From IMG/VR virus record IMGVR_UViG_2839026242_000001, positions 64,001 to 128,000 of that record: a DNA stretch of 64,000 nt. One strand, given 5' to 3'. Below the pieces are notes generated by a model, which had not been told where the DNA came from, did no database searches, and saw nothing but the letters and a program-made list of their open reading frames with translations. The stretch comes from a virus. Taxonomy: Duplodnaviria; Caudoviricetes. The position numbers and the translations under genes are program-made. This document shows, in pieces, positions 10,045-57,450 of the stretch; position 1 is the stretch's first letter, and each line of letters begins with the position of its first letter.

Positions 10045-10330
10045 TTTTATTCCTCCCCTCAAATTTCCTTTTCTTGCTACATCTTTATAATAACACGGTT
10101 AACTAGATAATACAACATATTTTTAGTTATTATTTTCGTTCAAATTTCGTTTTATTCCAATTTCATATCTTTAAAAGTCTCATCAAATATTTCAATACAT
10201 TGAGAACATGCCCATTTGCTCATTATGTAACTATACATCACCTCCAAATTATCTTTCTCGCAATCCTCGCAACGTCCATTTTTCCATCCATCAGTCATGA
10301 AGTTATCCTCCTTGTGAAATTTTCAATTTA

Positions 10331-11181
10331 TTAATAGCATAGTCTACCAACTTCACATTCTCTAGTATCATATACTCCCTTAATGGAGCGTATTTCATAA
10401 AGTTCTTTATCGGTTGTCAATATGACAAAACTCATTTTAATTTTTGGATAGTATACCTCACCAATCTCGTTAAGCCTCTCTGGTTCATGCGTGTAAACAT
10501 AGTATTGTTTCATTCATCATTCTCCTCATTTCGCATGAAATGTTCATTTCATTAGATTCTTTCATCACACAACTCGATTTTTCCATTGTCATTAATCACA
10601 TAGTCCCACTCTGTCCCACACTCCAGACATTGTATCCATTCAGGGACAGCATACGTAACATCCGCAACAAATCGTTTCCTTTTGCTCAATTTGCCGCTTT
10701 TCAAAACCTTTTGTTCATATTCAAATTGAGGCTGCCAACGTCTAACCATTTCCTCTTTTCCACAATTAGGACATTTCAATTACATGTACCTCCTTTCAAT
10801 AAAACTAAACTTTCATCTAGACTTCAATCTGAATTTTATTCCCCTAAAGATATACTGGCCGTCATCATCCAATTCTTGAATAAAAAATTCAATTTTTTCA
10901 ACGTCCTCTTTGCTGTATTTTGGCTTTTGGTTAAAATGGTATCCTACAGTATCCGTATTTTTTGTCTGATTATATACTTCTGTGGTTTTAACTCCAGATG
11001 GCTTTAACTTAAGGAATTCAGCAATTTGTTTAATAAGTCTACCATTTGGATTATCATTCGTATGATTTAATACTCCGAGCTTAAGTGCGATTTCTTCACA
11101 AAAAAGTCCCTCTCCTTCTTCGTTAAATCCAAATTCAGTTAACAAGTCTTCGCCGTACCTCTTTACCCGTTTACTCTTCAT
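10331..11181 (-). CDS. Three small hypothetical genes (10331-10513, 10552-10779 Zn-ribbon, 10813-11181)
   Basis: ORF track, RBSs present; each bounded by the palindrome. Confidence 0.65.
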
Positions 11182-11216
11182 ATCATACTCTCCTTAAAAC
11201 CAGTCTTTCATTTGGT

Positions 11217-11972
11217 TTACTCTGTTGCCACGTCCTTTAATTTCTTATCAATAATATCTGGTTCTACATCGAGTTTTTCTAATAACCATGCTATATCATC
11301 TCTATCGCCAATGTGTCCTTCTCCCCATCCTCCACCAGCGCTAATTTCGATTGCATATACTGCGATTGGTTCAAGTTTATACCCATACCATTCAGACATC
11401 TTTTCAGCTACATCAGCAGGATAAATATATTCATCTTCTTCCCTTTGATTATGAATTCTAATAAGGGTGTTAGCCAGATCCTTCTTAAAATCTTCTTGAT
11501 TTTTCCTATGATGTCTTAATCTAATTGTGATTATTTCACTCCCAGTTCTTTCAATTAGTTCAAAACATTCATTTTTCTTTCTTTTCCAAGCTTCTTTTGC
11601 TGCTAATACTGCCTGTTCATCTCTATTGTACCTTCTGCCTAATCCAACTCTAATTAACTCTCTTGCAAATCGCTCATCTGAATCTCGCCAAGGTTGCCCT
11701 GTTGTATGCAAATACCAATGACATAATTCGTGCAAGAGAATTCTTTTAATATGTCTCAAAGTATATCTTTCATTATTCTCATTATTGAGTACAACAGTCT
11801 TTATATCACTACAATAATATCCCGCATAATTATCCCAGTCGAGTTTGCATTCAATGGTTAATGGAGATTGTCTAGTTACTAAAAGAATCGTTGGTATTTC
11901 ATTGATGCTCCAATGTTTTTTAGTCAATTGTTTTGCTTGTTTTTCAAGCCACTCTATAGTTACTTCTGGCAC
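11217..11972 (-). CDS. SprT-like zinc metalloprotease domain protein
   Basis: ILLHELCHWYLH (HExxH) motif; GTG start after AGGAGG. Confidence 0.75.
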   Translation of the reverse strand: MPEVTIEWLEKQAKQLTKKHWSINEIPTILLVTRQSPLTIECKLDWDNYAGYYCSDIKTVVLNNENNERYTLRHIKRILLHELCHWYLHTTGQPWRDSDERFARELIRVGLGRRYNRDEQAVLAAKEAWKRKKNECFELIERTGSEIITIRLRHHRKNQEDFKKDLANTLIRIHNQREEDEYIYPADVAEKMSEWYGYKLEPIAVYAIEISAGGGWGEGHIGDRDDIAWLLEKLDVEPDIIDKKLKDVATE

Positions 11973-12434
11973 TACCCAAATCCTCCTTCCTGATAAAACC
12001 AATTTACTTAAGGATTAAACAATCTAAATGAATCATCAAAAAGCCTTACCTTTAATGTTGCCGAAACCCCTTTATTCTCCCATTTTGCATCAATGATAGT
12101 TCTAATCGGATATACTTCCTGTTCTGATTCAGCAATAAATTTTATCCCCACCTTAATGTTTGGGAGCAAATAGATATAAGCCTCACCGTACTTCGTATAT
12201 CTAACAAAATCCGCAACACCATAATCAACTTGTACTTTAGAATAATACTCCCGCTGCCATTCCCTTAATTCAATAATCCACTCTTCTTGTGTTTGTATAG
12301 AACCATTTTTCTTCTCAGAATCTTGAACCTCTCATGGCTAAAGCCACGAGATTCTTGGGTAGTCCGCTCTACTGAGCAGAATTAGTACATGATGTACCAC
12401 CAAGCTATCCCCGCAGTTCCTGCGGTTACTGCGA

Positions 12435-13538
12435 TTATGCAGATAGTAGTCTTTTGCCTTCGGCAAGAATATTCAAACTTGCGTTTACATCCCTATCCCA
12501 TTCACTATAGCAAGAAGGACACTTCCATTGTCGCAAGTTAAGATCTTTAACCTCTTTGTTTTGGTATCCACAACACGAACAGAGTTGAGAGGAAGCGAAC
12601 GTTTTGCCTACGACAACGACAGTACGTCCATGCCACTTTGCCTTGTATTCAAGCATCGTTCTGAATTGATACCAGGACACTTCGCTAATTGCTTTGGCAA
12701 GTTTGTGGTTCTTCATCATGTTAGACACTTGCAAATCTTCAATCGCAATGATGTCGTGGTTTTTGACAATATGCGTTGAAATTTTTTGCAAGTAGTCTGT
12801 TCGGGCATTTGCAATGCGTTCATGGATTCTGGCAACCTTAACTCGTTGTTTATTCCAGTTTGAAGAACCTTTCACACGTCTGGAAAGGATACGTTGTTCA
12901 CGAATGAGTTTTTGTTCCATATTCCGTAGGAATTTCGGATTCTCGAACACTTCACCGTTAGATAGAATAGCGAAATCCTTTAACCCAACGTCAATACCGA
13001 CTTCTTTGTTTGTTTTTGGCAATGGTTGCACGTCTGTTTCTACTAACAACGAAACAAAGTATTTGCCAGAGGGATTGCGTCTAATCGTAGCATTTAAAAT
13101 ACGACCTTCTACTTCTTTTGATTTCGCAAAACGAACAAGTCCAAGTTTAGGGAGTTTAATCTTATCTCCTTCTATCGCAATATTTCCGTTTGTGTGTTTC
13201 GTTGTGTACGACTGAACTTTATTCCTTTTTGACTTGAAACGTGGTGCATCATTCTGCTTCTTGAAGAATCGTGAATATGCGTCTGCGAGGTTCTTTATTG
13301 ATGATTGAATAGCGATGCTATCTACTTCTTTTAGCCAAGGTAATTCTTTTTTCAGATTCGGCAGTTCGGAAGAACATACTCCGTATGATAATCCTTTACC
13401 TGTTTCTTTGTATGTTTCGTTCCACTTCGCCAAGAAGTGGTTGAACACAAATCGACTGCAACCAATCGTTTTAACAATTAATACTTCCTGCTCTTTGGTT
13501 GGATAGATACGGAATTTGTATGCTTTATTTGCTAACAT
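12435..13538 (-). CDS. tnpB: TnpB RNA-guided endonuclease
   Basis: RuvC motifs GIDVG, IEDL and DRDVNA; Zn finger CSCC...CPSC. Confidence 0.95.
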
Positions 13539-13544
13539 TGCTTT

Positions 13545-13955
13545 TCACCTCACTTTCTGATTTTGGATGTATTGTCGTATTTGCGCTTCCGTGTGTTCAC
13601 TTACGGTTGCCACAAAGTAAGAAGGATTCCAAAGATTCCCTCCCCATAGCTTCTTTTTTAGCTGGGGGAACTCTTTAAATAGCAACCTTGCCGAAACACC
13701 CTTTAACGCTTTGATGATATTTGGAATTGAATGTTGCGGATTACAATCAATTAGGAGATGAACATGGTCACAATCACTTTCAATTTCTGAAATCGTGAAA
13801 CCATTATCTGTAGCAATTTGATTGAGTATTTCCTTTAGCTTTTTATCTATATCACCAAGCAACACTTTATGGCGATATTTCACACACCATACAATATGGT
13901 ATTGGATAGAGTACACATATTCTCTACCATGTTTAACTTCTGCCATGTTATCCAC
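13545..13955 (-). CDS. tnpA: Y1 HUH transposase TnpA
   Basis: YHIVWCVKYR, DHVHLL and YIQNQ motifs. Confidence 0.95.
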   Translation of the reverse strand: MDNMAEVKHGREYVYSIQYHIVWCVKYRHKVLLGDIDKKLKEILNQIATDNGFTISEIESDCDHVHLLIDCNPQHSIPNIIKALKGVSARLLFKEFPQLKKKLWGGNLWNPSYFVATVSEHTEAQIRQYIQNQKVR

Positions 13956-14252
13956 ATCAATTATAGGATAACATATGTAAAATGTTTTTCAATTTATTAC
14001 CTCTAAATATTAGCGTTTTTGCCAATCACCAAATTAACATATGTCGGACAATTGACGTGTCAAAAGACACACCTTGTCCGAAGCCGATTCATCTCATGAC
14101 TGAAGTCACGAGTGTTCTCGGCTAATTCATAAATGGCTTTTAGCAGAGTTTTTTCGGTTGTATCATGTCCTACAATCACAGTAAAACCAGCAGCTTCAAG
14201 ATTGGCTACAATTGCATCGACATTAAACATAAGCATTACCTCTTTTCTGTAT

Positions 14253-14828
14253 TTAACTTAACTTCCAATCAAAGTAATCTCCGGCTCTGAAAAAGTTATT
14301 GTGCGTGTCTGCATTAGGGAGTCCATCTGGATGGGCTGGAGAAACAGGCATTGCCATTCCACATGAATGACACTTTATTTCTGTTGAATTTTCATAAATA
14401 TAATGATTTGCTCTATAATTACATATTACACAATGATACCTGCATCTATAACGTTTTCGCCCATCTGGATCTACCTTAATGCCTGTCCTAATCCATTCGG
14501 GTTGATCATCTGTTGTCTGATATACTTCCTTTAACTCCTCTGTATTTTGCAATCCTTCGATTAGACTTTGTTTGATTTCTTCACTCTTATGTACAATATC
14601 TTCTTTAGTTACATTTTCGATTGGATTTAGTTTCTCAAAGAAACTGCTACATGCTTTGCCTACCTGTTCAAATGTCTTAACCATCTCAAAAATATCTTTA
14701 TCTATGCTGAATAAGTTAAATACATTTTGTATGATGACAAGTTTGGATAAGTTATCTGCCTCCTTAAGTTCAAGTTCCACCTCTTTGCCTTTATCATCTT
14801 TGATATTGATTTTTACTGTTAAAGACAT
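14253..14828 (-). CDS. Hypothetical protein with a C-terminal Zn ribbon
   Basis: CVIC...CHSC. Confidence 0.6.
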   Translation of the reverse strand: MSLTVKINIKDDKGKEVELELKEADNLSKLVIIQNVFNLFSIDKDIFEMVKTFEQVGKACSSFFEKLNPIENVTKEDIVHKSEEIKQSLIEGLQNTEELKEVYQTTDDQPEWIRTGIKVDPDGRKRYRCRYHCVICNYRANHYIYENSTEIKCHSCGMAMPVSPAHPDGLPNADTHNNFFRAGDYFDWKLS

Positions 14829-14889
14829 GCTATCACCTCAATGATGATTATAAGGCAAAGGGCAGCCAAAACCAAATACAACTTACATT

Positions 14890-15129
14890 TTATCCTAACT
14901 GTAAAATCTTGAACTTAACATCTGTACCCTCTAATAATTCACCAACATTGTAATTATGTCGATAATATCCCTTTTCATCTTTGGGATAATTCCAAAAACG
15001 TGAAAAATTACTTTTATCTATTGTATGAAATAATCTACTATTACTGTCCCATGTTAGCATTACTTCATAGCGTTCCCCAACATTCCAAAATCCATATGCA
15101 TCTTCAAGGCATTCTATTATAGCCTTCAT
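14890..15129 (-). CDS. Small hypothetical protein, paralog of 16633-16872
   Basis: Both share LTWDSNSRL and RFWNYPKD-KGYYRH. Confidence 0.75.
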   Translation of the reverse strand: MKAIIECLEDAYGFWNVGERYEVMLTWDSNSRLFHTIDKSNFSRFWNYPKDEKGYYRHNYNVGELLEGTDVKFKILQLG

Positions 15130-15404
15130 TAAATTCCCTCCTTTCTAATCAAACCCTCATTTGATTAAAATTGATATTCTTCCCATTCTTCCATATCTAC
15201 TTGTTCATCACATTTTCCACAATAAATAACATCTTCATAAAATCCATCTATGTTTTCAGGTTCAATGTCATAAACTATACCATGTCTTGATCCTTCTTTT
15301 AAGTCAATTCTTTGTTTTGCTGCAACCGACACCGTAACATAGAAAAATCTAGACTCTCCACATTTTTTGCAAGTGTATTTCATACTATCTCCAACTTTCC
15401 TGAT

Positions 15405-15659
15405 TCATCCACTTACCACGTTCTTATAAGCCTTTTCGTAGCCCTTAACATCGCCTCTTTTGCTCCATTCATCATAGCAAGCATCAACTTGCCAATGATA
15501 ATCAGATCTTGGATTGTTAGCGGCATAAGCAGATAGCCAGATTTTATCTTCTGTTTCCTTAAGAAGAGATTCGTAATCCATGTTACTTAACTTTTCAAGG
15601 TATTCACTTTTTGGTCTACCGTAATTATCTTTACCTTCATAATTTCTGAGCATCAACAA
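15405..15659 (-). CDS. Small hypothetical protein, paralog of 21191-21439
   Basis: Both share KIWLSA-AANNPRSDYHWQ-DACYDEW. Confidence 0.75.
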   Translation of the reverse strand: MLMLRNYEGKDNYGRPKSEYLEKLSNMDYESLLKETEDKIWLSAYAANNPRSDYHWQVDACYDEWSKRGDVKGYEKAYKNVVSG

Positions 15660-16632
15660 ATCCTCCTTTTCCTATCAAATCCACTTTTATTGCAAACCAT
15701 CTAATGACGATGATTGGTCACAAAAATAGGCAGTTTCAATTAATGTAAATCTAATATAAACATCTGAGCCTCTTGTCCCTTGGTAAGCTCCATTAAAATC
15801 GGCATCAACAAATATTTTTCCTGTAATAGAACCTCCAATAACCTGATTCTCAAAATTCATATAATAATCTTCAGAAATAATCTCTAACTCATCTCCAAAA
15901 ACTAATTGCAATATAAATTTTAATTCTTTTAAATTACGCTTCCCTTTATAATAAACTAACTCCCCTTCATCATTTTCTTTCCATTTCTCTCTATTCCTGA
16001 AATACTGGCTTAAATTACGCTTTCTTTGTTCAAATTCTTTTGTATTCAATGAACTATAACCCCCTTTTCGTTATTTCTCTAATGCTCCCATTTTATTATA
16101 TCATCATTATTCCCTATTTTCTTTCTGAAACGCTCATTTTATCAAACTTTTCCTAACAAACTCATTTTATTCACTTAAAATACATTCATGCCATCTAGTT
16201 TCAGAATACATACCTACATTAATACATGCTTTATCAATTTCTTTAAAATTATTTTGAAACCAATTAAGAAAGGATTTAACCTCTTTTGGATTAGCCACCT
16301 TTTTTGCCGATTCTATAGCTAAGAGTTTCATTTTATAATAAGAATTTCGATGCTTAAGCTTCTTGGGATCAGTTATAATTCTTTGCTCACTATCCCTGTA
16401 TTCAAATGCAAATATAGTGTTTGCAACCCATCCATGTCTCCCTTGATCAGAATAGTGAAAAAGGTTGCTTTCAAAATGGGTATTAAAATAAGATGCAATC
16501 ATATTAGATATGGTGTGGCACTTATTATTCATATTGGGATCGAAAATTTTAATAATATTAATTAAGCCAATTTCTACTTGTCGTAAAAATTCTAAATCCT
16601 TCATATTTTCACTTCCTCATTAAATTAACATT

Positions 16633-16872
16633 TCATCCTAATTGTATAATCTTAAATAATACCCCTGCTCCCTCAATTAATTCTCCAGTCTTATAATCAT
16701 GTCGATAATAACCCTTTTTATCTTTTGGATAATTCCAAAAGCGCTCAAATTTGTCCCTATCTGTTGTATGTAATAATCTACTATTGCTGTCCCATGTTAA
16801 AATTACTTCGTACTGTTCTCCAACTTTCCAGAGTTCATATTTAGTTTCAAGACATTCAATTACCGCATTCAT
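16633..16872 (-). CDS. Small hypothetical protein, paralog of 14890-15129
   Basis: Direct comparison of the two translations. Confidence 0.75.
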   Translation of the reverse strand: MNAVIECLETKYELWKVGEQYEVILTWDSNSRLLHTTDRDKFERFWNYPKDKKGYYRHDYKTGELIEGAGVLFKIIQLG

Positions 16873-18908
16873 TCATAACCATCCTTCCTATAAAATCCCC
16901 ATTTTATCGAATTATCTCTATATACTTTTCAAATGTATCATGGTCTAATTCAAAATAAGGAAACTCTAAATCAAAATTATAAAGTTTAATTGAATAAAAA
17001 TTCTTGCCTCCACCAAGAGGGAAGACTATTGCCTCTCCTTCGTATCCAACTTCTGCTCTCAATACTGAATCCTTGCTGGTCAAATTTTTAAGCGAGAATG
17101 ACTTAATAACTCTTACTTTAACTGTTTGCTTTTCCATGATAAATCACTCCTATATTCTTATGAAATACCATTTTAAAAGGATATATATTGTAATTCATCA
17201 TCAGTAAATCCAGCATATTCTCCATCAATAAATTCAAGTAGATTTAGCTTAATTCCATCAAGTGTTACTTGACCGTATTTTTTACCCACTTGGTTAAAAT
17301 AATTTGAGTCTCGGTTAATAACTTTGAATTTCATATAACATTCTCCTTTAGCTATGTTTTTTTCGATGAAATGCCAATTTGATTAAATTTCCTTCAATAG
17401 ATTCTCTATATATTGAATTCGTTCATCAACTAGAACTGCAACATAGCCATTCATTGTTTTATACTCTTTTAAACTTTCTAACTCCTTTCTTAAATCCTCT
17501 TCAAATAGTTTAACAATTTGATTCATGCCCACATCCCCTCCATTTTCAATCAAAACGATATTTCATTTACATTCTTCTGGTGATTTACCAACGCATTCCT
17601 CTTTAAAAGGAACACGAATTTGTTCACCAATCTTAATATTATCCAAGTAGTCTTTTTCATAAACTCCATTTCTCAATACAAGGATTGGTTGTCTTTCTGT
17701 CATTTTTAGTTCTCCAACTATTTCCCACTTTATTTCTTTGTCCCTCATAAATTAACCTCCTATTTTCCATAAGCCGATATTTGATTATTATACTGGATCA
17801 TTTTCTTTATCTCGAAGAGTGTGAATTTGCTCATTCAGATCACTTTATATTTGTTTTAAATCAAAAATCACATCATTGCTTTTATTGTGAGTCAATTTCT
17901 TTAATGAGCAAACTTGCTTCGCTTAAATAATCTGCTGCCGCTCTTCTTGCCTCAACAGCCTCTGTAATATCTCGTTTCTTTTGACTTTGGTTTAACATTG
18001 GATTCACCTCGCTAAAAAATAATCAACTCGCGTTTATTAATGATCATTTATTCATCGTTAACTGCCCAAAATGTCCACAATTCAAGCATAGACATGATGC
18101 AACCACTTCATAAAACTTTTCAACTTCGTATTCACCTGTCCAACGTGAATGAATAATGCGGTTAATATTCTGAGAATCGCATTTTTCACATTTCATTACA
18201 ACACTATGATTAGACATAAATTGAACCCCATCTTCCTAATCAAATTACCTTTTCATTTGTTTTTCTTCTATCTCTTTGATTGCTTCTTCTTCGCGTTTAA
18301 TCATTTGTTTTGCAAGTTTAAGCATGCGTTTGCGGTTTTCAATACTTGTTGAATCATTACCCCATCCGATAATATTTAGTGAATTTTGATAAGCAATGAA
18401 CATTCGTGGATCGTCAGCATGATGCGCTTTCGCAACCAATACATTATTGCAATGATTACCAATACCAAATGAATTAATGTTGTTTTGTTCAACACGCCCC
18501 AGATATCTTCTATATCCATTCATTCCCTCGTCAATTGCTTCAATAAATTCTTTAGGGTACTTTTCAATTTGATCCCATCCATCGTTCAGAATAGTAATTG
18601 TAGTCATATATCCCATATTCAAACTCTCCATTTTAATCAAATCTTGTTTTCATTTATTGTTTTTAAAGCGCTGTAATTCTTCTTGTTCCTGACGAATCAA
18701 TTCCTTACTTACCTTGCCTATTTCGCTATCAGAGATGTCGCGTTCATTCATGAATGCCTCGTGTTGCAATCTCCAGTATTTTTCTCGAATTTTTCTTATC
18801 TCTGAATTTTGAATACGACTTATTTCATCTTGGTTCAATACTTCTTTAAATTGCTTTTCTTCGCTCAAATAATTCATTTTCAAAAAACCTCCTTATGAAA
18901 TCACCGTT

Positions 18909-19157
18909 TTATGCTGTTGCAGTTTTTACTTCAATAGCACAATTCTTACATATCAGCTTGCCTTTAAAATAAATTGTGTCATCTGCATTACCGCAAAACA
19001 AACAAGATGGCTGATATTTCTTCAGAATGATCTGCTCCCCATCCACATAAATCTCTAGAGCGTCTTTGATGTTGATATCAAAGGTGTCCCTTAGTTCTTT
19101 TGGTAGAACAATACGTCCCAATTCATCCACTTTTCTAACTATACCAGTTGCTTTCAT
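18909..19157 (-). CDS. abrB: AbrB-family transition-state regulator
   Basis: MKATGIVRKVDELGRIVLPKELR plus C-terminal CxxC...CxxC, very close to Bacillales AbrB. Confidence 0.92.
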   Translation of the reverse strand: MKATGIVRKVDELGRIVLPKELRDTFDINIKDALEIYVDGEQIILKKYQPSCLFCGNADDTIYFKGKLICKNCAIEVKTATA

Positions 19158-19892
19158 TGCATCATCCCCTTTTCAAATTAACTATTGTAATAAGACCCCT
19201 TTATCTCAGACGAGATAGTTTGCAAACGCTCAATGAAAACATCCAATTGGGAAACCGTTGAAAATCTCAGAATCGTTGTTCCGATATGAACAAGTACACA
19301 TTCATCAACAACGTCTCCATCTTTGTCGTATTGATTCACGCTGAAAGTTGCATCACTATATACACTCATAAAGTTCCTCCCTATTTACTTAATACACAGT
19401 TTGTTAAGACCGCCATAACCCGAGTTCTTTCAACGTGTTGCGGGCAAGTTCCCAATCACTCAATCCGATCTCTCTTCCGTCACTAGCGTACCACCGTAAA
19501 GCATGGACAAGTTTCTCGTATCCGGCGTCAGCTGCGGCAACCACCCTGACATTCTCTGCTTTCAACCGTTCGATCTCCGCTTTCAATCGCTTGACTACAT
19601 CCCGATAAAGTTTGCAGTCGTCTTCCAAGTCTTTTTCGATCCGCATATAGAATTCAATCACTCTTGCCCGGGCTTCGTTCAGCTCGTTTGCTGCCTTCTC
19701 AGCGCACAGTAACCGCATCAACGCCCTGTGTACTGAGCCATGCGGATTGTGATACTGCAAAAGAGTCTCGATATCCTTACGTTCCTCTTCTTTGAGCGGT
19801 CGATCCCATCCAAATGCCTTTCCTTCAGTGTAGATGCTCATACTTTCCCCTCCCGATTATCAAACTGAGCATTTTGTAAAATTACTTATCAC

Positions 19893-21190: not shown

Positions 21191-21439
21191 TTATTGATTG
21201 GCTGCACGTTTCCACGCTTTTTCATAACCACCCACATCATTACGTTTAACCCATTCATCATAACAAGCATCACATTGCCAATGATAATCTGATCTGGGGT
21301 TGTTTGCTGCGAATGCTGATAACCAAATTTTTTGTTCAGTTTCCTCTAGTAATTCTTCTCTGCTCATACCTGCTATTTTACTCAAATATTCGCTCTTCGG
21401 TTTTCCATAGTTATCATTACCTTCATACTTTCTCAACAC
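21191..21439 (-). CDS. Small hypothetical protein, paralog of 15405-15659
   Basis: Direct comparison of the two translations. Confidence 0.75.
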   Translation of the reverse strand: MLRKYEGNDNYGKPKSEYLSKIAGMSREELLEETEQKIWLSAFAANNPRSDYHWQCDACYDEWVKRNDVGGYEKAWKRAANQ

Positions 21440-22075: not shown

Positions 22076-22732
22076 TCAATCAAAATCCTCATATTCATCT
22101 TCAAGCCACCACTCCCACCAAGATTCTTCCTCCTCTTCATCTTCTTCCCACCAGCACTTTCGCACAGGCACTGGCTTTCTAGAGTCCATAATTTTCTTGC
22201 ACCTATCTCTAAAGTCATTCTCATCCAGAGACGTTTTGATAAACTCAACCAATAACTCCTGCTTTTTGTAAAAGTGTAAAGCAAGATTTAGGATGTAATC
22301 GGAAGGTTCATCCCAGCCATGTGAAATAAAAAGTTTAATGATCTCTTGTTTTCTCTCCTCCATAATTTCGAAGTATCTCTGGCGATTTCTTTCGTCCCTA
22401 AGTCGTTTTCTTTCCTCGTGCAGTTCTTTGATCTTTTTTCGCCAAGCTTTATACGCTTTCTTTTTTTCAGCATCCATAGACTGCCAAACTTTTGGACTGA
22501 CTGGATCTAACACCTTTTTAAGATAAAACGTCCTCCCGTCAGTGGTGGACAGAAAAGGCCCTCGCTTTGAATAACTAAGAGTGCAGTGTTCGCCGCGTTC
22601 ATCAAAAAACTCATAAGTACCTTCACTTTTTGGTCTTGCATCAAAGTTATCTGGTACGACATAAAACACACCACTTTCAGCAATTTGATAGTTTTCACAC
22701 ATTTTCAAAACTATAACTTGCAGCATATGCAC
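22076..22732 (-). CDS. Hypothetical protein with an acidic/Trp-rich tail
   Basis: ORF track, 218 aa. Confidence 0.6.
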   Translation of the reverse strand: MHMLQVIVLKMCENYQIAESGVFYVVPDNFDARPKSEGTYEFFDERGEHCTLSYSKRGPFLSTTDGRTFYLKKVLDPVSPKVWQSMDAEKKKAYKAWRKKIKELHEERKRLRDERNRQRYFEIMEERKQEIIKLFISHGWDEPSDYILNLALHFYKKQELLVEFIKTSLDENDFRDRCKKIMDSRKPVPVRKCWWEEDEEEEESWWEWWLEDEYEDFD

Positions 22733-23091
22733 ACACCCTTAAACCATATTTCACTCAAAACACAAATAAAAATTGTCTAACACGTTCCATATTAGTCTTC
22801 CTTTCTAACAATCAAAGTGATTGACTGTCAGTAATCCATCCTTGTAAAGCTTCTCCAATAACCTAACTTTACTCTCCATACTTACACATTCGAGCGACAA
22901 AGGAGCATTTACAAGTACATTTGTTTTTGTGTTCATCAATCGTTCCACTTCATTTTTCTCGTACAGATATGTTCCGCAAAATTGCTCCATCCACTCGGGC
23001 ATTGCCCACTTCATTAAGATCTCTTGGCCGTTAATATCCTTGTAACCTGTTGGCTTCATAAAATTTCTTCCTTTCTTCAACTTTTTGTAAC

Positions 23092-23316
23092 TCATTTATT
23101 TCGATGTTTCTCAATCATTCTTTGAATCTCAATCAATAATTTCGGATCATCAGGCAACTCAATTTTGTTTACTTTTCTCACTACAATTTCATCTCCGTTA
23201 ACCTCAACAGATACAGTATCTCCCTGTTCAATTCCTATTTCCCTTAGTTGCTCTGTCATGGACACCCCTAAGCTGTTTCCAATCTTGATGACTTTACGTT
23301 CCAATGTATGTATCAC
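23092..23316 (-). CDS. AbrB/MazE/SpoVT-fold DNA-binding protein
   Basis: RKVIKIGNSLGVS...GIEQGDTV; own promoter upstream. Confidence 0.75.
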   Translation of the reverse strand: MIHTLERKVIKIGNSLGVSMTEQLREIGIEQGDTVSVEVNGDEIVVRKVNKIELPDDPKLLIEIQRMIEKHRNK

Positions 23317-24585
23317 CTCTCTCTTTCTTTATGATTCCATTATAACCGTTATGACGTTATAACGCAAGTGTTTTACTTGTAGTTTTTTATTTTATTACAT
23401 TAACTACAAATGGGATGCTAACACAACATCCCATTTAATAACTTGCCCTATTTTTTAGGCTTCCTCTTGTTTATTCATGATAGCCACCATCCGATACAAT
23501 AAGTCTTTAATCGTGATCCCAACCTCGTTTTTGTGCCTCCGCTTTAATTTCCTCTAAATCTTGTTCGGTTGGTACATCCATATTTTCACTTTCGTCCTCC
23601 TCGTAATACAATCCGATTTTGTGAGGAGATTCTTGTATTCCAAATTGAAAAGCTTTCGTATATACTAATTCAACTGCATGAAACAGTGTAGATTCCAAAT
23701 ATGTTGTGGAAATAACTCCATCCGTATTTCCCCGAAACTTTCCCATAGCCTTATTCTCTTCATTGTCTTGTGTTTCCAACCAAAACAGCTTTGCTGCCCA
23801 TTTTCCATCAAGTTTCTTTACCTTAATTGTATGCATGTATGTCATAGCAAAGTCTTCCCCCTAACAAAATTTGACTTTCATTCAAATATTTGAAACGAAT
23901 CGTCTTGCCATTTCGTAAAGCAGTGCGTCTTCAGTCACACGCAAATTGTTCTCTCCAAACTTTTCTTCAAATTTCACTTGTATCTCCCTGACAATCCCTT
24001 TTGGCAGAACACCGCTGTTATACTTCCATTCGGTGATTTCTTCAAATGCTTGTTTTAATTGTTCATCAGTAAGCGACTATACTAATTCTTTCAGAAACAT
24101 ATAATATCCCTCCAGTTAAAGTCACATTTTTAAAGTGACTTTTTAAAAATTATTAATCCAAAAATGATTTCCCGGCATATAGTAGCAAAGTTGTTTTGTT
24201 ATCCCTTTATCTTTTAAGAAGCTCTCCAACATTTGTATAAATTTTTCGTTAACATGAACCCAAATTTTATTATCTACAAATGGATCATGAAAAACATTCT
24301 TTACCTGAATTTCATTTTCTTTTACCAGAACTAAGCGAATAATACTTCCTTTCTCAATTAATAGTTGATTAAATTCATCTACCATTTGTTTTGTCATAAG
24401 TTGCTCCATAATTATCATCTCCCTATGAAATCAAAGTTTTAACTAACCTAATTATACTTAGTGTCCATAGCTTATGTACTGTTTAATAAGTATTTCTCTC
24501 TCAATGCCGAAAATCCCTTCACGCTCTAGTTTTTTAATAAATTTTTTAATTTTCATTATTACTATCCGCCCTCTCAGAAATTCAA

Positions 24586-24990
24586 TTAGACTTCGATCAA
24601 TTCTTCTTTATTTTTATTTTTAACGGCAAAAAATTCACTTGGTGATACCAAACCAAAACTAATTTTCAATGCCTCATTTACTTTTTGCATAGTTTTCTCA
24701 TCCAATCTGCTAACTTTATCAGTCAATCTTAGCTTGTCAATGGTTCGTATCTGTTCCGATAAAACAACAGAGTCTCGCTCAAGTCCGAATGTTTTTGCAT
24801 CCAATTCCACATGCGTAGGCAATTTTGCTTTTGAAATCTGTGAGGTAATTGCTGCGACGATGACCGTTGGACTAAATCGATTTCCAATGTCGTTCTGAAT
24901 GACTAAAACAGGTCGCACGCCTCCTTGCTCAGAGCCAATGACAGGTGATAGATCAGCCAAATAAATTTCTCCCCTACATACTCTTCTCAA
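24586..24990 (-). CDS. mazF: MazF/NdoA (PemK-family) endoribonuclease with no adjacent antitoxin
   Basis: [30 protein letters not shown]...EQIRTIDK, near-identical to Bacillus NdoA motifs. Confidence 0.92.
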
Positions 24991-25225
24991 TAATCTTCAC
25001 TCCCTATGGTTTCGTTAATGCCACTAATATATATCGCTTTGCAATTTACTTTTATATCTTATATCTATATATTACCACGCAGACGAGATTATTACAACTA
25101 AAAATAATAAATTCAACAAAACAAAATCACGTCTAATAATTGTGCAATTCGAACATTTCTTCATTTAAATTAAAAAAGAAAAAGACTTTACATCTTTGCA
25201 AAGTCTTCAACAAGTTATTAATTGT

Positions 25226-25897
25226 TCAAAAAAACCTGCTCATATCTAGTTTCCCTGGTTCGTAATAAATATCAAATGCTCGGTTTAACAAAAAAACATC
25301 ATTCAAGCTTTCTTTGCCAAACATTATTTGGGCAATTTGTTCTTTGGTAGGCTCGTTAATCATTTTTAACTCGAAATAACGCTTTATGTGACCATGCATT
25401 TGTTTCACATCTCTTGCCCAAGGATATAGCACTTTCATACCAGCAGATAAAGCTCGAATTTCCGAAAGAGTGTATGTCTCATCCACTATTCTTTGAACAG
25501 CAGATTTCCCAGAAGCCATATCTTTGGCTCCCACACCAAATCTAATTACACACGTAGTTCCTACATGCAGCTTATTACCGTTTATTTTATTCTGAATGAT
25601 AAGGTTATATCGAAGATTTTCTTGTCCGCATAGCTGACAAGTTGAATAAAATTCAACAGGAGGCTTCTCAGAAAAATACGACATATTATCTAATGTATTT
25701 TGATCGATCCAGTCTACATATTCCCATTCACTTTTTGCTTCGTCGAAATTTTGACTTACACTTAGTCTCAAAAGATTATCAACTACTATTTTACGTGGTT
25801 TTGTGCTAATCTCCCCGTCCTTGTACTTCGCTAACATAGCCAAAATATTAGGCTTTTTTGATCGTCTACCTTTGACTTTTCTTTTCGTGTATCGCAA
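25226..25897 (-). CDS. Hypothetical protein with CxxC...C motifs
   Basis: ORF track, 223 aa. Confidence 0.55.
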   Translation of the reverse strand: MRYTKRKVKGRRSKKPNILAMLAKYKDGEISTKPRKIVVDNLLRLSVSQNFDEAKSEWEYVDWIDQNTLDNMSYFSEKPPVEFYSTCQLCGQENLRYNLIIQNKINGNKLHVGTTCVIRFGVGAKDMASGKSAVQRIVDETYTLSEIRALSAGMKVLYPWARDVKQMHGHIKRYFELKMINEPTKEQIAQIMFGKESLNDVFLLNRAFDIYYEPGKLDMSRFF

Positions 25898-27060
25898 GTC
25901 AATTCACACCTTTGCATAATAGATAAGGTGTTTTCTACGATGACTGTTATAGTTATTGCGCACCATTAACTCTATTATACCATAAGACGCAAGCATATGT
26001 TCGATAAATCTGTCTTCTTGCAAAGGAAATGTTGATTTTTTGAATATGGCTAATTGATTTGCAATATCTAAAAAACGGGACGACTTGCAGCAATTAATCC
26101 AAATGTTAAATGATGAGAATATCCATCACTTGCAACTATTAAAAAAATACTTTATATCAAATAACGATTTGAACGAATTTTATTTACTTGCGCATGTACG
26201 ACACAAAGCATGTTCGCCAATAGGTACACCATCTGCGAAAACTGTATATGCACATTCTTCTGGGTGATCTACTTCTATTAACTTATCGCAATCCTCACAT
26301 ATAACTGTAATCATATTACACCCTCCCTAAATTTGAATAAATTCAGACTTTGCTTGGTTTATGAGCAAATATACTTTAGCGTTTCTTTATAGCATTGTAG
26401 ACAAAGCTCTTCATCTACTCCGATAATATTCAATATTCTTATTAAATTTTTATTGCTATACATACCACAACTGGTACACATTCGTAATTCTTCTCTGTAT
26501 TCCTTGTTATTTATTTTCATTTCCGCCTCCCATGAAACTATGCTTTTGTGCCGTTTTCTTCTATCCACTCAGGAAAGTTTTCACGCATGAACCCATTATA
26601 ACGTTCTTTGACTGGTTCAAATTTTTCTTCTAGATAAGCAAATGACAATACACAATGTTTTGCGTAGAAGTCCATAGCCTCTTCGATATTTTTTATATCT
26701 CGTTTTAGCAATTCTGGTGTCGTTGGCGAAGCGTTACGCTCATGCATATCCATACATAAAATAACAAATTTAATTCTTTCCGAAATGCCTGTATATAAGC
26801 AGCTTGCAACACCAGCAGGAACAATTTCCATATGTTATCCTATCCCTATGGATTTATTTTATTAATCCAACATCGTCTGGCTTAATTTCTCCATTAAGAA
26901 GCTTTGTAAGTCGTTCTCTGGTTTCATCGATGAGAGCTTTTAAGCCTTCAACAGTATTGTATCCATCATAACCGATCAAAATATCTCTTGTGTCTTCAAG
27001 AAACAGACGCTCGTGCTTTTCCATTAATCGATACCCTCCTTTTCAGTTTGAAATATCATA

Positions 27061-27136
27061 TGGCGTCCCAGACAGGATTCGAACCTGTGCATGATCGCTT
27101 AGAAGACAATTGCCTTATCCGCTTGGCTACTGGGAC
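27061..27136 (-). tRNA. tRNA-Arg(TCT)
   Basis: GTCCCAG acceptor stem, anticodon loop CTTCTAA, GGTTCGAATCC T arm, encoded CCA. Confidence 0.9.
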
Positions 27137-27137
27137 A

Positions 27138-27213
27138 TGGTGGATCTGACAGGGTATGATCCTGCAACCTCGCTGTTATGAGCAGCTTGCTCTGCCAATT
27201 GAGCTACAGATCC
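27138..27213 (-). tRNA. tRNA with CAT anticodon (likely Ile2, otherwise Met), atypical T loop
   Basis: GGATCTG/CAGATCC acceptor stem, loop CTCATAA, T loop ATCATAC, encoded CCA. Confidence 0.8.
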
Positions 27214-27600
27214 AAGATAGGAGCCAGTATGTACTGGTTGTTACTCTTCTTCTTGACGCAATCCAGCCTCTTCAATGCTACATTGCCATTTTTCATTGTA
27301 GAAATAATTCAACCGTTTACACCTGCAATACCAAACATGGGCAAATCGGTTTCAGGATCATTGTAGCGATCATCTCTTATAATTTGCATTGTTTTAGACG
27401 ATTCAATGATTATACGATCCTTTTTGCTGAGATTCATTGTCCTCATCTCCTATAAATATGTATTTAACTTTGCCATTCTTGATAATATTGCTCTATGCTG
27501 TCAGAAAACTGATACTTATACTCCCTTAATTCGCGCCATGTTAGTTCATTGTTTACCCATTTTTCGAGAAGTGCAATAAACCTACGAATTTCTACTTTGT

Positions 27601-28113
27601 TCATTGACAGATCACCTCCCTTTGCTTATCTAGAATAATACTGATTAATTGCTCTAAATCTGTCTCGAAAATATCTGTATTTGAAAAGTGATTACATGTA
27701 GGGAATACCGTTATTTTGTTACCTTTTACCCTGAAACTAAAGATTGTTACTCCATTCAGTTGCACGTGGTTATAATTTTTAATTACTTTATTTTTGACTA
27801 CCTTTGCGCTAGTGTCGTATTCAATTTGTTCAATTACATCATCAGTTGTCATTTCAATTTCATTTTCAATCGTAAAGGATTTACCTTCAAAATAATCTTC
27901 AATTGGCATTTCAATTTCAAACTTCTCACCTGCAATGAATCCAACCAATGTAACTTTGTCTTCCGTAACAATTTCTTCGCAATTTTCTGCATAAATGAAG
28001 TTTGTTGTTGCCCAATCGCTGAACATTTGAAAATCATCTTCTTTTACAATCTGGCTTGTTACTGGATGCATGATCATTCTCCCAATGTATTCGATAGTCG
28101 CAGCATTTTGCAT
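27601..28113 (-). CDS. Hypothetical acidic protein
   Basis: ORF track; RBS and own promoter. Confidence 0.6.
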   Translation of the reverse strand: MQNAATIEYIGRMIMHPVTSQIVKEDDFQMFSDWATTNFIYAENCEEIVTEDKVTLVGFIAGEKFEIEMPIEDYFEGKSFTIENEIEMTTDDVIEQIEYDTSAKVVKNKVIKNYNHVQLNGVTIFSFRVKGNKITVFPTCNHFSNTDIFETDLEQLISIILDKQREVICQ

Positions 28114-28274
28114 ATGTATTACCTCTCCTTCATTTATTTTATATTCTTATTGTACTATTCTACGACCTTTTAAGCAATATGTTTTTTATTAATTTTATAT
28201 TATAAAAGCCACCTTTTTCGGTGACTTTTGAATCAAACCAGACTTTGATTACCTTCTTTAGTTGTTACGTAAAA

Positions 28275-28850
28275 TCACGGGCTTTCTACCGATTTCAGAA
28301 TAATACTTCGGCCATTGCAAGTTGGGCATAACCAGATTGGAATTCCCTTTTCTAATTTATAACTGTTTCCTTTGCAATCTGGACACGTATCCCTAACTGC
28401 AACCTTAAAATCGTGTTTTCTACCTTTGCGATCTCTAAAAGATAGCTTTTTACCTTTCAAAGCCTCCCTGATCTTCTCCTCTGTCACATGTGTATATCCA
28501 AGTAGTTTATCACGTTCCCACAAATCAGTTCGCCCCTCGATATATCTAAACGCTTCACACGTTATTATAGAGCAACCATTCACCTTGTCGTATTTCAAAT
28601 TGCAATCCTCTGATCGACTACATACATAATCGCAAAGTTTACCCATAACCTCCCATTCACGACCACCAGAAAGCTTTTCCCTGTCTACTTTAAAAACCCC
28701 GCGACAGGATTTCGGCACTTTTTTGAAGGGGAACGCTTTCAAATTCCCCATGTTCGGTTTTGCAGTACATTCGTACCATGTGCCGTAACAAGTTCCATAT
28801 TCTCCATACTCTGATTCTTCATGATAATTTGCGCAATTTTCACATCCCAT
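28275..28850 (-). CDS. Cys-rich hypothetical protein (several Zn ribbons)
   Basis: Multiple CxxC motifs. Confidence 0.6.
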   Translation of the reverse strand: MGCENCANYHEESEYGEYGTCYGTWYECTAKPNMGNLKAFPFKKVPKSCRGVFKVDREKLSGGREWEVMGKLCDYVCSRSEDCNLKYDKVNGCSIITCEAFRYIEGRTDLWERDKLLGYTHVTEEKIREALKGKKLSFRDRKGRKHDFKVAVRDTCPDCKGNSYKLEKGIPIWLCPTCNGRSIILKSVESP

Positions 28851-29807
28851 AATTTTAACACCTCACTTTACCCAACTATTGTCTCAAATCCCCTTTATGT
28901 AGGTATCAAACTCAGGCTTTGTCATGCCTGTTATCTGCTTATATGCATCATCAAGCGTAACGGTATCCGATTCAAAACTGACTTGTTTATAATCAACCAT
29001 ATTCTTTACCTCACATTAATAACATTTAATAAACATCCACATTAACCACTTCAACCTCGTCAAGTTGTTTCAAACCTTCTATGTAGTTACGCGCCTGTTC
29101 TCTGGTATTGAAATCTGTTTTTGTTAGCATACAATCATCTTCCCATTTATTCTCTTCGCTGTCCCAATATTGAACAATAACTCTGGGCTGTGTGTTATCT
29201 GCAAAATAGTTAATTCTGATTTTCGTTTTCTCCATTTGGATTCCTCCAATCATATAACGCCCTGCTGTCTTAGTTTAATTAAATTTTACTTTTATTTAAT
29301 TAGTTCTTCACCATCTTCTGTTACCTTATACAGTCTTACGTTGAAAACTTCACTATCATTTTTCCACTGATTGTATTTAGATTCTGCCTTGCTGTAATCG
29401 AATATTGGATCAGTAGCCAATGGTGCAATATCCATATCTGCTACAACTATGTAATACATTTAACAACCCTCCATTTTCAATACAATTCCACTTTTATTGT
29501 ATTTTCGATATGACAAATTCAGTTATTTTGTTTAAGTCTCTTGAATTAAAATTCTCCATCTCAATTATTTCACCGTTCACCTTTTTATAAATACATGTAG
29601 TGCGTTTGCCAACTGTAGCAAACCAGTCTAAATTTCTGAAACGCGCCCTACCTCCGATAACTGCAATTCTCCCCTGTTCTTTTGCAGTTTCTACTCCATG
29701 TAAAGCTAACTTTGTTTGACCGTCTTCAACAAAACCATTTTCTAAGAGGAATTGGATTACTTTATCCATTTCATTTCCCCCTGATAAAATTTCAATTTAT
29801 TTGGTTT

Positions 29808-30227
29808 CTAAAAATAAGTTTCAACTTTTGAAGATATGATTGTTTTCAGTCTTCTTACATTCTTGCTGTTGTGACCCATTACAAGGTCATAGAACGCATT
29901 CGCAAATAACTCTTCTTGATCTGTTTCGTTATATTCTGTGACCAATCCAACATTGCTATTATCGAATAATACGTGATGCAAGAAATGACCAAACTCATGC
30001 AAGAAAATTTCTTCTATTTCTTCTTCTGAAAGTGAACTATCTAAGTAAATAGTTCTGTTATTTGGTAAGTAGCCACCCAATACCCAATCATCATCTTGCT
30101 TGAGAAGATTTGCTGGAATAAACTCAACTTTAGGCAAGAATGGGAGTTGATTAATGTTCAAAATGTCGGTATTAATGATTTCAAGATTATCTGCAATCAA
30201 CTTCTTTTTATTCTTCATGATAGCCAC
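29808..30227 (-). CDS. Small HExxH metallopeptidase (ImmA/IrrE/zincin-like)
   Basis: FLHEFGHFLH...EELFANAF. Confidence 0.7.
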   Translation of the reverse strand: MAIMKNKKKLIADNLEIINTDILNINQLPFLPKVEFIPANLLKQDDDWVLGGYLPNNRTIYLDSSLSEEEIEEIFLHEFGHFLHHVLFDNSNVGLVTEYNETDQEELFANAFYDLVMGHNSKNVRRLKTIISSKVETYF

Positions 30228-31982
30228 TCCTCAGCCTAATTTTATCATTTGAGTTATTCCAATCAAATCCACTTTTATTGAGATTTATTGATTGGATGGC
30301 TCTTCTGTATCAACAATGTTATACGTCTTTATAATTTTATGATTCTCAAAAGGCATTGTTATTTTAACTTCCCATCCATTCTTAGCATTTTTCTCAGCAT
30401 ATTTCATTGCACCCTTAAGCGTGTTATAATGTCCAAAAAATTGATGAGAGAAAGCAGTGTTTGCATTGCGAATTGTTACATGTACCATGTATTTTTTCAC
30501 AATACCACCCCTTATCTATAAGATAGATTCCCATGAAATCTCAATTTGAATTGGTTTTGTTCTTTGGAGCACCATTTCTACAATTTACACAAACATAGCC
30601 ATAAAATGCTTTTTTCCATCCATTCGGTAGAGTCACTTCATCCTTAACTGAATGACAAACTGAGCATTTATATTCCATATCTATCTCTTCCTTATTAATG
30701 TATTTTTACTTTACCACCAGCAATATGTAAGACAAATAATGCTTTATTACTTCTGTTCATTTCAATTCCTTCGATCTGCACTGTGTCCATGAGAAATTTT
30801 CCATCTTCCCCTGCTTTTGCCATACCTCTTTTGGATACTCCGAGCCAATCAACAGTAAACTCAATCATGATTTCCCCTCCTTTTTTCTTTAAAAGGATCA
30901 ATTTATTAGGATACTTGAATTAATTCATAGTTTCTATGCAGCCAATCAATCACATCATCTTCAGTTACATACTTGTTTTCAGTTCTATTGTTACCGATTT
31001 TCCATTGAATCGTTAGGTATAAACAGTCATTTTTGTTCTCTACCATAATTTCATTTACTCCAGCATCCAGTTTGAAAACCTCATATTTGTTTAATAATTC
31101 TTTTGCCATTTCTCTTGTCACTTTCATTTTCATTGCTTCCTCAATTTTGAATAAAAATATAGATTAATTCAGCTTTTTCTGCTATTAATTAGCGATGCTC
31201 CTTAGCTGTTATGACTATTTGATATATTTATTATACACCAAAGCTCTTAGATACTCAACCGAATCTTTTTATATTTTTATTTTATTTTCAAATAAAACAC
31301 GCAGCAATAATAGCTATAAAAAGCAAAACTGGCATAATGACTTCACCGAGAACATAATCTACTTTATCTTGACTCATTTTTAGCCCCTCTTATTTAGTGC
31401 TGTTTCTGTTCTTACACCTTCTGTTCTCTCTATACCTATCAATCCATCAACCGTGTTATCAGGATCAAAATAAGCAATCACTATATCACCAACTGCTATC
31501 TCTTTATTGGTTATGTCTGAGAAAATGTTTTCTTCAACAAAGTATATGTTGCTGCTGTCAGATACACCACTTCCCCAATATTGTCCATTTTCGACTTTGG
31601 TGATTTTGTAGATAAATACTGCGTAATTACCACATGCAGATGCAAAAGATGATGTACAAAATACAATTCCCACCACTAGTAGCATCGTTGTCAAGTATTT
31701 GAAAATAGTACTCATTTATACACGCCACCTTTTATTTAATTTAATTTATTTAATCCTCAATCATTTCCCCTGTTTTCGGGTTGTATAGATTGATCCAGCC
31801 CTTCTCCTTGTGTTCGTATATCTCTAGTCCGTCTCCTGTCTTGCCGTTATATGTCCACTGGTCTTTCCCTAGAATACCTCTCCTGTGTGCTATTCCAGTC
31901 ATTTGAAACCCTCCCTGTTATTTTGGGTTATCCTGCCCTATCCTGATAAATCAAGACAAGGCTGGATGATTATTTTTACTTG

Positions 31983-57405: not shown

Positions 57406-57450
57406 TACATATAAAAAGAGTATTTCATTCAATTATGGGAGGCAATTAGA

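Follow-up and report, generated by a model that had tools for sequence, protein, structure and literature searches.

How large temperate phages hold their gene order while exchanging accessory genes is an old question, and the answer that short linkers join the exchanged genes has little sequence support outside the promoter-early stem-loops (PeSLs) of T4-type phages. The window analysed here, a 64,000-nucleotide stretch of viral DNA (IMG/VR record IMGVR_UViG_2839026242_000001; bases 64001-128000 of the 136,134-bp phage contig C5), raises this question through a single element, an 18-bp palindrome of the form ATNAAA-N6-TTTNAT that recurs at the junctions of a long array of small genes. An earlier interpretation made from the letters alone (the sequence-only reading) had taken the array for an integron-like set of cassettes exchanged by a phage recombinase, with breakpoints expected in the 6-bp core of the palindrome. 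Our analysis confirmed the motif and partly supported that interpretation, in that cassette-like exchange was found, whereas an integron and crossover in the core were not. The motif looks like a built-in gene-exchange joint of SPbeta-like phages rather than an integron.

A strictly spaced palindrome at gene junctions

The locus that raised the question is:

10314-30906, minus strand: array of small co-oriented genes with the motif at its junctions

Exact ATNAAA-N6-TTTNAT was found 18 times in the window, compared with a mean of 1.40 in dinucleotide shuffles (s.d. 1.19, largest 5). Fourteen of these copies lie within the array, where the sequence-only reading had counted 13, and each of the five sites that it quoted as examples was present as described. 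The spacing is strict, with 2, 7, 18, 2 and 2 exact copies in the window at spacers of 4, 5, 6, 7 and 8, respectively; the seven spacer-5 copies compare with 1.47 expected. An unbiased scan of C5 for all palindromes with 6-nt half-sites and spacers of 0-12 placed ATNAAA with spacer 6 at the top (35 copies), with the runner-up at 11 and a maximum of 10 across 10 Markov simulations. The whole 4.64-Mb assembly holds 48 exact copies to the 35 of C5, a contrast that is not a fair null because the remaining assembly is 52% GC. Enrichment at junctions over an AT-rich intergenic background, a comparison proposed beforehand, was pronounced: when 202 co-directional junctions were each dinucleotide-shuffled singly, 27 exact copies were observed against 0.49, and copies with at most one mismatch numbered 70 (in 69 junctions) against 9.1. 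One spacer-5 copy is present twice as the same 17-mer in different gene contexts (15674-15690 and 30262-30278), so not every copy has a unique centre; a near-copy of this 17-mer stands at a third junction (29460-29499). The contig also carries a second palindrome, TTNATT-N12-AATNAA, in 11 copies against approximately 3 in simulations.

Within the array, where junctions were counted with our own simple gene caller, all called genes lie on the minus strand and 53 junctions are co-directional. An exact copy (spacer 5 or 6) occupies 14 of these, a one-mismatch copy 14 and a two-mismatch copy 9, with none in the remaining 16. The figure of about 35 junction copies given previously therefore stands if two mismatches are allowed and fails for exact or one-mismatch copies, which account for 28 of the 53 junctions. 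Along the coding strand, the upstream stop codon lies within the left arm or shortly ahead of it; the core and the right arm come next, and a few further bases lead to the Shine-Dalgarno sequence and then the start codon. The stop codon falls at motif positions 2-4 in 13 of 35 copies, in agreement with the proposal that it is often part of the arm, 2-4 nt before the motif in a further 9 and within the core in 2. In 24 of the 35 copies, the start codon of the downstream gene lies 15-45 nt past the motif, and the upstream stop is located in the motif or no more than 4 nt before it in 24 of 35, placing these copies inside operons and not in promoter regions. Promoter-like sites in the array (71, compared with 78.1 ± 9.5 in shuffles, a consensus scan being weak evidence) and terminator-like sites (4, compared with 7.8 expected) were not enriched. 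This accords with the description of the genes as co-oriented and mostly promoterless, and the motif is not a promoter-terminator cassette because neither type of site is enriched. The idea that the linker supplies stops in all three frames was rejected, as stops in at least two frames occurred near 16 of 35 copies and at 74 of 202 junctions, a weak difference. Self-comparison of C5 returned six short self-matches, including one paralogue pair bounded by motif copies, which is not decisive.

Copies of the motif in and around the array, without assigned strand, are as follows:

10535-10552: exact copy at a gene junction
10799-10816: exact copy, upstream stop in the left arm
11193-11211: one-mismatch copy; homology of X5 record 11 ends in the arm at 11208
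14876-14893: one-mismatch copy; homology of X5 record 13 ends at the edge, 14876, followed by 390 other letters
15148-15165: exact copy; X5 record 13 has a 509-letter insertion in the arm, between 15162 and 15164
15674-15690: spacer-5 copy, same 17-mer as 30262-30278
16619-16636: exact copy, stop codon in the arm
16890-16907: exact copy; X5 record 13 breaks in the arm (16893)
17366-17383: exact copy at a junction
17549-17566: exact copy; X5 record 14 retains the copy and its core, then has a different ribosome-binding site (break at 17552)
18239-18256: exact copy, upstream stop in the core
18636-18653: exact copy; homology of X1 record 1 and X4 record 8 (two studies) ends 9 nt beyond, at 18627
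18895-18912: exact copy, stop codon in the arm
19859-19877: degenerate copy (spacer 7, one mismatch) before the acquired gene 19393-19877, also present in the donors; X4 record 10 departs from the window 2 nt past this copy
20244-20261: one-mismatch copy; homology of X4 record 10 ends in the arm (20258)
20385-20402: exact copy within the called open reading frame (ORF) 20253-20615
20855-20872: exact copy; homology of X7 record 20 ends in the arm (20869)
28232-28249: exact copy, with a hairpin and a promoter-like region after it
29278-29295: exact copy, stop codon in the arm
30262-30278: spacer-5 copy, same 17-mer as 15674-15690
42326-42343: exact copy outside the array, before a ribosome-binding site
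49131-49148: exact copy inside a helicase ORF, probably non-functional
57411-57428: exact copy in the plus-strand arm of the contig, before a ribosome-binding site
59176-59193: exact copy in the plus-strand arm of the contig

Breakpoints coincide with motif edges in the window

Metagenome contigs from four runs of four studies (X1, X4, X5 and X7) were compared with 10914-30906, and the conclusions apply to the parts of this region that they cover. The counts draw on 30 of the 56 pieces, from which eight shorter than 60 nt were dropped, and a joint in X4 (18257 to 18627) was left uncounted as one of its sides comprised 20 letters. The aligned pieces are gene-sized and 90-99.6% alike, with several contigs forming mosaics of the window. 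At 26 piece ends the contig continues unlike the window; 17 of these ends lie in junctions. Nine of the 17 junction breakpoints fall within 2 nt of a motif copy, compared with 17% of junction positions (p = 0.0008). All nine are located in the outer part of an arm or at its edge, and none in the core, where the sequence-only reading had expected them.

The most extensive rearrangement was carried by a 1833-nt contig (X5 record 13). It contains the 509 letters inserted into the arm of the copy at 15148-15165, and the four-gene block at 15405-16892 is replaced by 198 letters, with one end of the replacement in the arm of the copy at 16890-16907 and the other directly after a stop codon. In the same contig, 16 nt adjoining the edge of the copy at 14876-14893 give way to the 390 other letters. 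The homology of other contigs ends in the arms of copies at 11208, 17552, 20258 and 20869, and that of one contig stops 2 nt past the degenerate copy at 19859-19877. Gene-sized units lying between copies are therefore gained, lost and replaced, with breaks at the motif, which upholds this part of the earlier cassette proposal. Against it stands one acquired gene:

19393-19877, minus strand: single gene with its leader, a gene-sized acquisition with 99% identity to the same-genus genome G003

This gene, of higher GC content, also shares 87% identity with the viral contig L008 (49% GC) and is a recent one-gene transfer between very different phages. It was gained through a degenerate copy upstream and a motif-poor junction downstream.

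The motif and its breakpoints in the SPbeta family

The assignment of C5 to the SPbeta-like phages, suggested previously, was borne out by the proteins that it encodes. These include homologues of SPbeta YonO (55% identity), YonN (65%), YopP (28%), YopQ (25%) and YopR/MrpR (26%), as well as a homologue of the SPbeta DNA polymerase YorL and an SprA-like serine recombinase. SPbeta itself carries the motif as ATAAAA-N6-TTTTAT. Its spacer-6 copies number 14, compared with 1-6 for other spacers, and many of them are located after a stop codon and ahead of a Shine-Dalgarno sequence. In nine other SPbeta-like records, 15-24 copies each were counted, compared with 2-5 for a backwards control pattern. 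The motif is thus a trait of the SPbeta family, being present in SPbeta and in all nine of these records. Several copies in SPbeta-like Bacillus phages are directly preceded or followed by a further conserved element, TTAGAATAAAAATAAAATTA-like and about 22 nt long, which forms a compound linker (for example, L018:26530-26555 and L018:43693-43715).

Whole genomes of eight phages (SPbeta, phi3T, SPR, Goe12, Goe11, BUCT082, BUCT083 and SPbetaL1) were compared all against all, yielding 2412 unique homology-block ends and 141 motif copies. An end was defined as edge-coincident when the block begins precisely at the outer margin of a motif copy and includes the whole copy (four positions). Edge-coincident ends numbered 89, compared with 3.6 ± 2.0 at random non-coding sites (largest 13 in 500 draws), and their rate was 0.63 per motif copy against 0.078 per motif-less junction (43 at 551 stop-anchored junctions). 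Among the approximately 200 motif-proximal ends, 84 are concentrated on three adjacent positions. Only 7 of these 200 or so ends lie inside motif positions 3-18, and 2-3 at the boundary between arm and core (positions 6-7 or 12-13), so that in the family homology almost never breaks in the core. The excess at the edge persisted without the low-complexity filter and with blastn. As the family genomes are kin and share events, these counts overstate the number of independent events, and for the same reason the effect size is safer than any p-value.

Of 31 motif 18-mers present in at least two genomes, 21 are directly adjoined by more than one kind of flanking sequence, in 11 cases on both sides. 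One 18-mer copy lies between three wholly different gene pairs in Goe11, Goe12 and BUCT082, with only about 30 nt around it in common. Where both flanks are homologous, the change rate is 2.2% in the arms, about half that of the flanks (4.1-7.7%), and 3.8% in the core, roughly as in the flanks.

Two smaller comparisons added little. A partial-genome test of the family showed a modest association (32 of 105 junction-by-pair cells compared with 198 of 1100), in cells that are pseudo-replicated and leave too few events after de-duplication. Among laboratory-evolved phi3Ts x SPbeta hybrids, six of seven parental switches occurred in shared stretches of 1.4-18 kb and are not resolvable; these hybrids are uninformative because 6 motif contacts were observed against 6.35 expected.

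The motif as a probable double-stranded DNA element

Both arms show the same base preference, with T avoided at the free position, giving the consensus AT[A/G/C]AAA-N6-TTT[T/C/G]AT. Weak symmetric conservation is visible at the first and last bases of the core and at some flank bases, and otherwise the core is nearly devoid of information, consistent with the earlier view of conserved arms around a freely varying core. The symmetry is not accompanied by a pairing constraint. Motif positions 3 and 16 could pair in 5 of 35 copies, compared with 10 under independence, and no covariation was detected in flank positions among the 35 copies. An imposed arm-to-arm RNA hairpin costs +4.1 kcal/mol on average, and a minimum free energy of -1.3 kcal/mol was obtained for the 26-nt context, compared with -0.9 in shuffles, with an arm-to-arm fold in 10 of 35 copies. 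Because the arms are mirror-symmetric without such a constraint, the most likely reader of the motif would be a dimeric protein on double-stranded DNA.

No -35/-10 pair was found in the motif. A role as a promoter for the YonO polymerase was ruled out as well, because YonO transcribes one late operon from one start site, according to the available part of PMC5467207.

A probable linker for gene-module exchange

From the anatomy of the motif, its family-wide conservation and the coincidence of breakpoints with it, all of which are observed, we infer that a protein binds the motif and that recombination takes place between its copies. We consider it probable that the motif is a conserved, protein-bound intergenic linker of SPbeta-like phages that serves as the crossover point for gene-module exchange. 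The linker would sit between a stop codon and the next ribosome-binding site in long, promoter-poor operons of accessory genes, where a dimeric protein would bind its two mirror-image arms on double-stranded DNA. Every copy would have its own 6-bp centre, and copy and centre would be retained as the neighbouring gene, on one side or on both, is swapped. Exchange between phages would then join unrelated genes at a copy and leave the centre intact, and homology between relatives would break at the outer edge of the motif. Two routes to such exchange can be envisaged, namely short-homology recombination, for which the arms common to both partners and the neighbouring ribosome-binding site would provide up to about 30 shared bases, or a site-specific enzyme acting at the motif. 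The motif would qualify as a linker because it is part of both neighbouring blocks, and recombination between copies is favoured over random breakage followed by selection, since breaks at random would seldom restore a perfect copy.

Several observations weigh against this linker. Motif-free junctions make up 16 of the 53 in the array, the acquisition at 19393-19877 made use of a degenerate copy and a junction poor in the motif, and the window counts rest on 30 of 56 contig pieces, with 8 under 60 nt dropped. In the family, kinship inflates the event counts and edge-coincident ends occur in only 24 of 54 distinct motif sequences. Most mosaic ends are away from the motif (about 200 of 2412 are near it), and motif-less junctions also have breakpoints (447 ends near 551 sites). 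The single phi3Ts x SPbeta switch that could be resolved (39 nt) lies inside a gene, far from any motif. In distant relatives fetched through one array protein the motif excess is weak, and selection alone could leave the surviving breakpoints beside an essential junction element.

The linker idea is directly testable in Bacillus subtilis with SPbeta, phi3T and the Goe phages, because the boundaries fall on motif edges with base-pair precision.

Candidate proteins and alternative explanations

Three genes of the window encode proteins that bear on what might act at the motif:

51109-52107, minus strand: YopP-family, Xer-like tyrosine recombinase homologue (28% identity to SPbeta YopP; generic Phage_integrase in Pfam)
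4337-5293, minus strand: MrpR/YopR-type repressor homologue (Pfam MrpR_N_CB and MrpR_C_cat)
5369-6679, minus strand: YopQ-like protein with a DndB/ParB-like domain, candidate DNA binder

The protein encoded at 51109-52107 is a candidate binder or recombinase, and the Xer-like YopP and the ParB/DndB-like YopQ are more generally candidates for a function at the motif. Putative catalytic residues of the YopP family were assigned by eye against the box I/II patterns. On this assignment, R158, K185/K187, H242, H268 and Y277 are invariant in all nine aligned homologues, the position of the second arginine (245) is K in six and R in three, and box II reads HxxK, not HxxR, in the window protein, SPbeta YopP and YomM. 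A phmmer search of the YopP-like protein against solved structures gave no match. YopP has no assigned role in the available text of PMC8612738.

An extension of the linker is that its copies are addressed sites, at which a dimeric protein, with the YopP family as the obvious candidate, exchanges only copies with the same centre. Judged on the sequences compared here, we regard this as rather unlikely. If true, co-infecting or resident SPbeta-like phages would swap the gene at a given address with gene order kept, a viral form of site-specific allelic cassette exchange distinct from integrons.

That a phage tyrosine recombinase, for example the YopP homologue, swaps strands across the core and moves single-gene circles in the manner of an integron appears unlikely. 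Inverted arms around a 6-bp spacer are the geometry of Xer-type core sites such as dif, in which the central region spans 6-8 bp, and Xer-like proteins are encoded by the same phages; the putative catalytic set, with K or R at position 245, is kept in all nine YopP-family homologues, and the protein is common to SPbeta and the phage of the window. The 509-letter insertion lies precisely inside one copy, and copies sharing a core are joined to different flanks from one phage to another, as recombination between identical cores would yield. The array itself resembles an integron in its co-oriented, mostly promoterless small genes, in the imperfect palindromes between them, often with the stop inside, and in the gain and loss of gene-sized units. 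However, the arms measure just 6 bp with weak flanks, about half the length of Xer/dif arms, and breaks occur at outer edges and not at the arm/core boundary (none of the nine in the window, 2-3 of about 200 in the family), although this test is blind if both partners share the same centre. The cores differ among all copies of a genome, which would block ordinary tyrosine recombination between neighbours, and the HxxK of box II departs from HxxR. The attC sites of integrons are imperfect palindromes of approximately 57-141 bp that bear R''/L'' and L'/R' boxes and act as folded single strands; IntI, the product of a gene beside attI, recombines them at a fixed point of the R box. The motif, by contrast, is 18 bp long (17 with a 5-base spacer) and forms no stable hairpin. 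No IntI/attI/Pc platform was found beside the array, the recombinase-like genes of the window being those at 51109-52107, 20 kb away, and 4337-5293 only (the IntI-specific extra domain was not tested separately). With an 18-bp site, no stable hairpin and no IntI-type integrase flanking the array, the integron proposed by the sequence-only reading was not borne out.

About equally doubtful is a purely regulatory operator, in which a dimeric repressor, silencer or roadblock keeps the accessory operons off or tuned and the breakpoints are a by-product of selection. A repressor or roadblock operator is compatible with the dyad symmetry, which lacks covariation, and with arms more conserved than their flanks; candidate binders would be the MrpR homologue, the ParB/DndB-like YopQ homologue or a helix-turn-helix protein. 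SPbeta offers a precedent, as described in the available part of PMC10516654. Its master repressor MrpR has a tyrosine-recombinase fold, has lost recombinase function and binds a dispersed operator, SPBRE, with a 15-bp consensus; ten peaks of chromatin affinity purification sequencing (ChAP-seq) were all located at SPBRE promoters (PMC10516654). Like the motif, SPBRE is a dispersed dyad of SPbeta-like phages, and a homologue of its reader is encoded in the window. SPBRE differs in sequence (the ten reported SPbeta promoter regions share approximately AAATACAAAwAATATGTAT), in its promoter location and in its number of about ten bound sites, and its consensus ATACA-N5-9-TGTAT had no match on C5. 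The MrpR homologue must therefore use another site, which favours the operator, whereas the identity of motif and SPBRE was ruled out, since sequence and place differ, SPbeta has both elements and SPBRE is absent from C5. Against the operator, the copies stand inside operons between stop codon and ribosome-binding site and not at promoters, and none of the 14 SPbeta copies is located at the ten SPBRE promoter sites where all of the ChAP-seq peaks were reported. Selection by itself, moreover, would not readily account for a pattern in which three adjacent positions take up 84 of about 200 nearby block ends.

A signal at the RNA level, with a hairpin or protein site on the mRNA that controls translation of the next gene, translational coupling or the processing of polycistronic RNA, is very unlikely. 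The motif is always on the mRNA right before a ribosome-binding site, often overlapping the stop codon, and spacers of 5 or 6 are tolerated. Covariation is absent and positions 3 and 16 pair less often than by chance, the hairpin is unfavourable on average with only 10 of 35 copies folding arm to arm, the distance from motif to start codon varies between 15 and 45 nt, and mirror-image half-sites would suit a DNA-binding dimer and not a single-stranded RNA binder.

A compositional by-product of an AT-rich stop context and an AT-rich leader, with no unit of its own, can be dismissed almost entirely: TAA or TGA lies in the left arm of 13 of 35 copies and the sequence following the right arm is reminiscent of an extended Shine-Dalgarno leader, but this reading is contradicted by the sharp spacing (18 at spacer 6 against 2-7 at neighbouring spacers), the rank in the palindrome scan and the junction-only shuffles, the arm persists where the stop codon is outside (9 of 35 copies), and the backwards control is 4-10 times rarer in ten phage genomes.

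Relation to described linkers

The closest described system, by analogy, would be the PeSLs, which have the same role with another anatomy and are reportedly also the subject of a paper by Comeau et al. 2014 (PMC4122927) on T4-type phages. PeSLs, described from T4-type phages, are mobile regulatory cassettes (Arbiol et al. 2010, available part of PMC2839356), and their mini-circles, products of exchange between neighbouring copies, were shown by experiment (PMC2839356, likewise). In both cases a short conserved element is repeated between small non-essential genes of a large phage and acts as a joint of modular shuffling, and indels and replacements end at its copies, here at 9 of 17 junction breaks in the window and at 89 family ends against approximately 3.6. 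A PeSL consists of a strong early promoter of the sigma-70 type and a terminator stem-loop; the motif is an 18-bp dyad with a free centre, carries neither promoter nor terminator signal and is situated inside operons, between stop codon and ribosome-binding site.

The modular theory of Botstein is said to have placed linker sequences between exchangeable modules, and boundary sequences are reported for lambdoid phages. The motif shares with these linkers the character of a short conserved joint between unrelated neighbours, as illustrated by the same 18-mer between different gene pairs in three phages. The classical linkers are reportedly a hypothesis with sparse sequence support; here, the joint is a defined palindrome with breakpoints precise to the base pair. 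At 14-35 copies per genome, it extends the short-linker idea beyond the T4-type phages to a second family unrelated to them, that of the laboratory model SPbeta. A description of the motif was not found in the literature searched, including the available parts of an SPbeta review and a preprint; the original paper on the SPbeta genome (Lazarevic et al. 1999) might mention it.

The phage, its relatives and its host genus

Contig C5 has a G+C content of 33.8%, compared with 51.9% for the assembly (4.64 Mb), and a gap of 18 points is unusual between a temperate phage and its host. Its genes lie nearly all on the minus strand up to 116 kb and on the plus strand beyond. At the DNA level, kinship to Bacillus phages is only distant, and homologues of one array protein carry the name Paenibacillus in their sources. 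Megablast and blastn searches against 50,697 phage records returned matches to a transposase and short gene pieces only, and no close relative. A scan of 37 same-genus genomes likewise returned single genes only (an insertion sequence (IS) element, a mazF-like gene, an abrB-like gene and one gene at 99% identity). Because that array gene is 99% identical to its counterpart in a same-genus genome, the low-GC phage seems to be resident in the high-GC genus, which on this evidence would be its host genus. The mazF-like piece on C5 shares 85% identity with contig C27 of the same assembly.

A family scan with a 123-aa array protein across viral, genome and metagenome contigs found relatives of at most 71% identity, which proved unsuitable for breakpoint mapping. 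At the distant loci retrieved in this way, the motif is weakly enriched (summed, 23 copies at spacer 6 against 4-12 at other spacers). Public sequencing runs contain short, nearly identical parts of the phage; among the matches listed, each of the 10 runs carries at most 10% of the sampled words, and none is an RNA run.

Other features of the assembly and the window may be recorded here. Contig C51 of the same assembly (31.6 kb, 34.6% GC) has three exact motif copies and no DNA similarity to C5, and may represent another such phage or element. A second partial MrpR/YopR match (residues 113-249, 31% identity) is located on the plus strand before the window, at C5:16934-17332. Inside the array lies a transposon-type gene:

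12435-13538: IS605-type OrfB/TnpB gene

Copies of this gene at 79-92% identity occur in same-genus genomes, and at about 75% in Bacillus and Enterococcus phages. Finally, the genes at 38600-40340 (for example, at 38615-38640, 39000-39030 and 40314-40340) have their own sigma-A-type promoters, and their common leader ends in GGAAATAC(A/T)T right before the Shine-Dalgarno sequence. This leader includes UACAU, which we take to be the MazF/EndoA cleavage motif.

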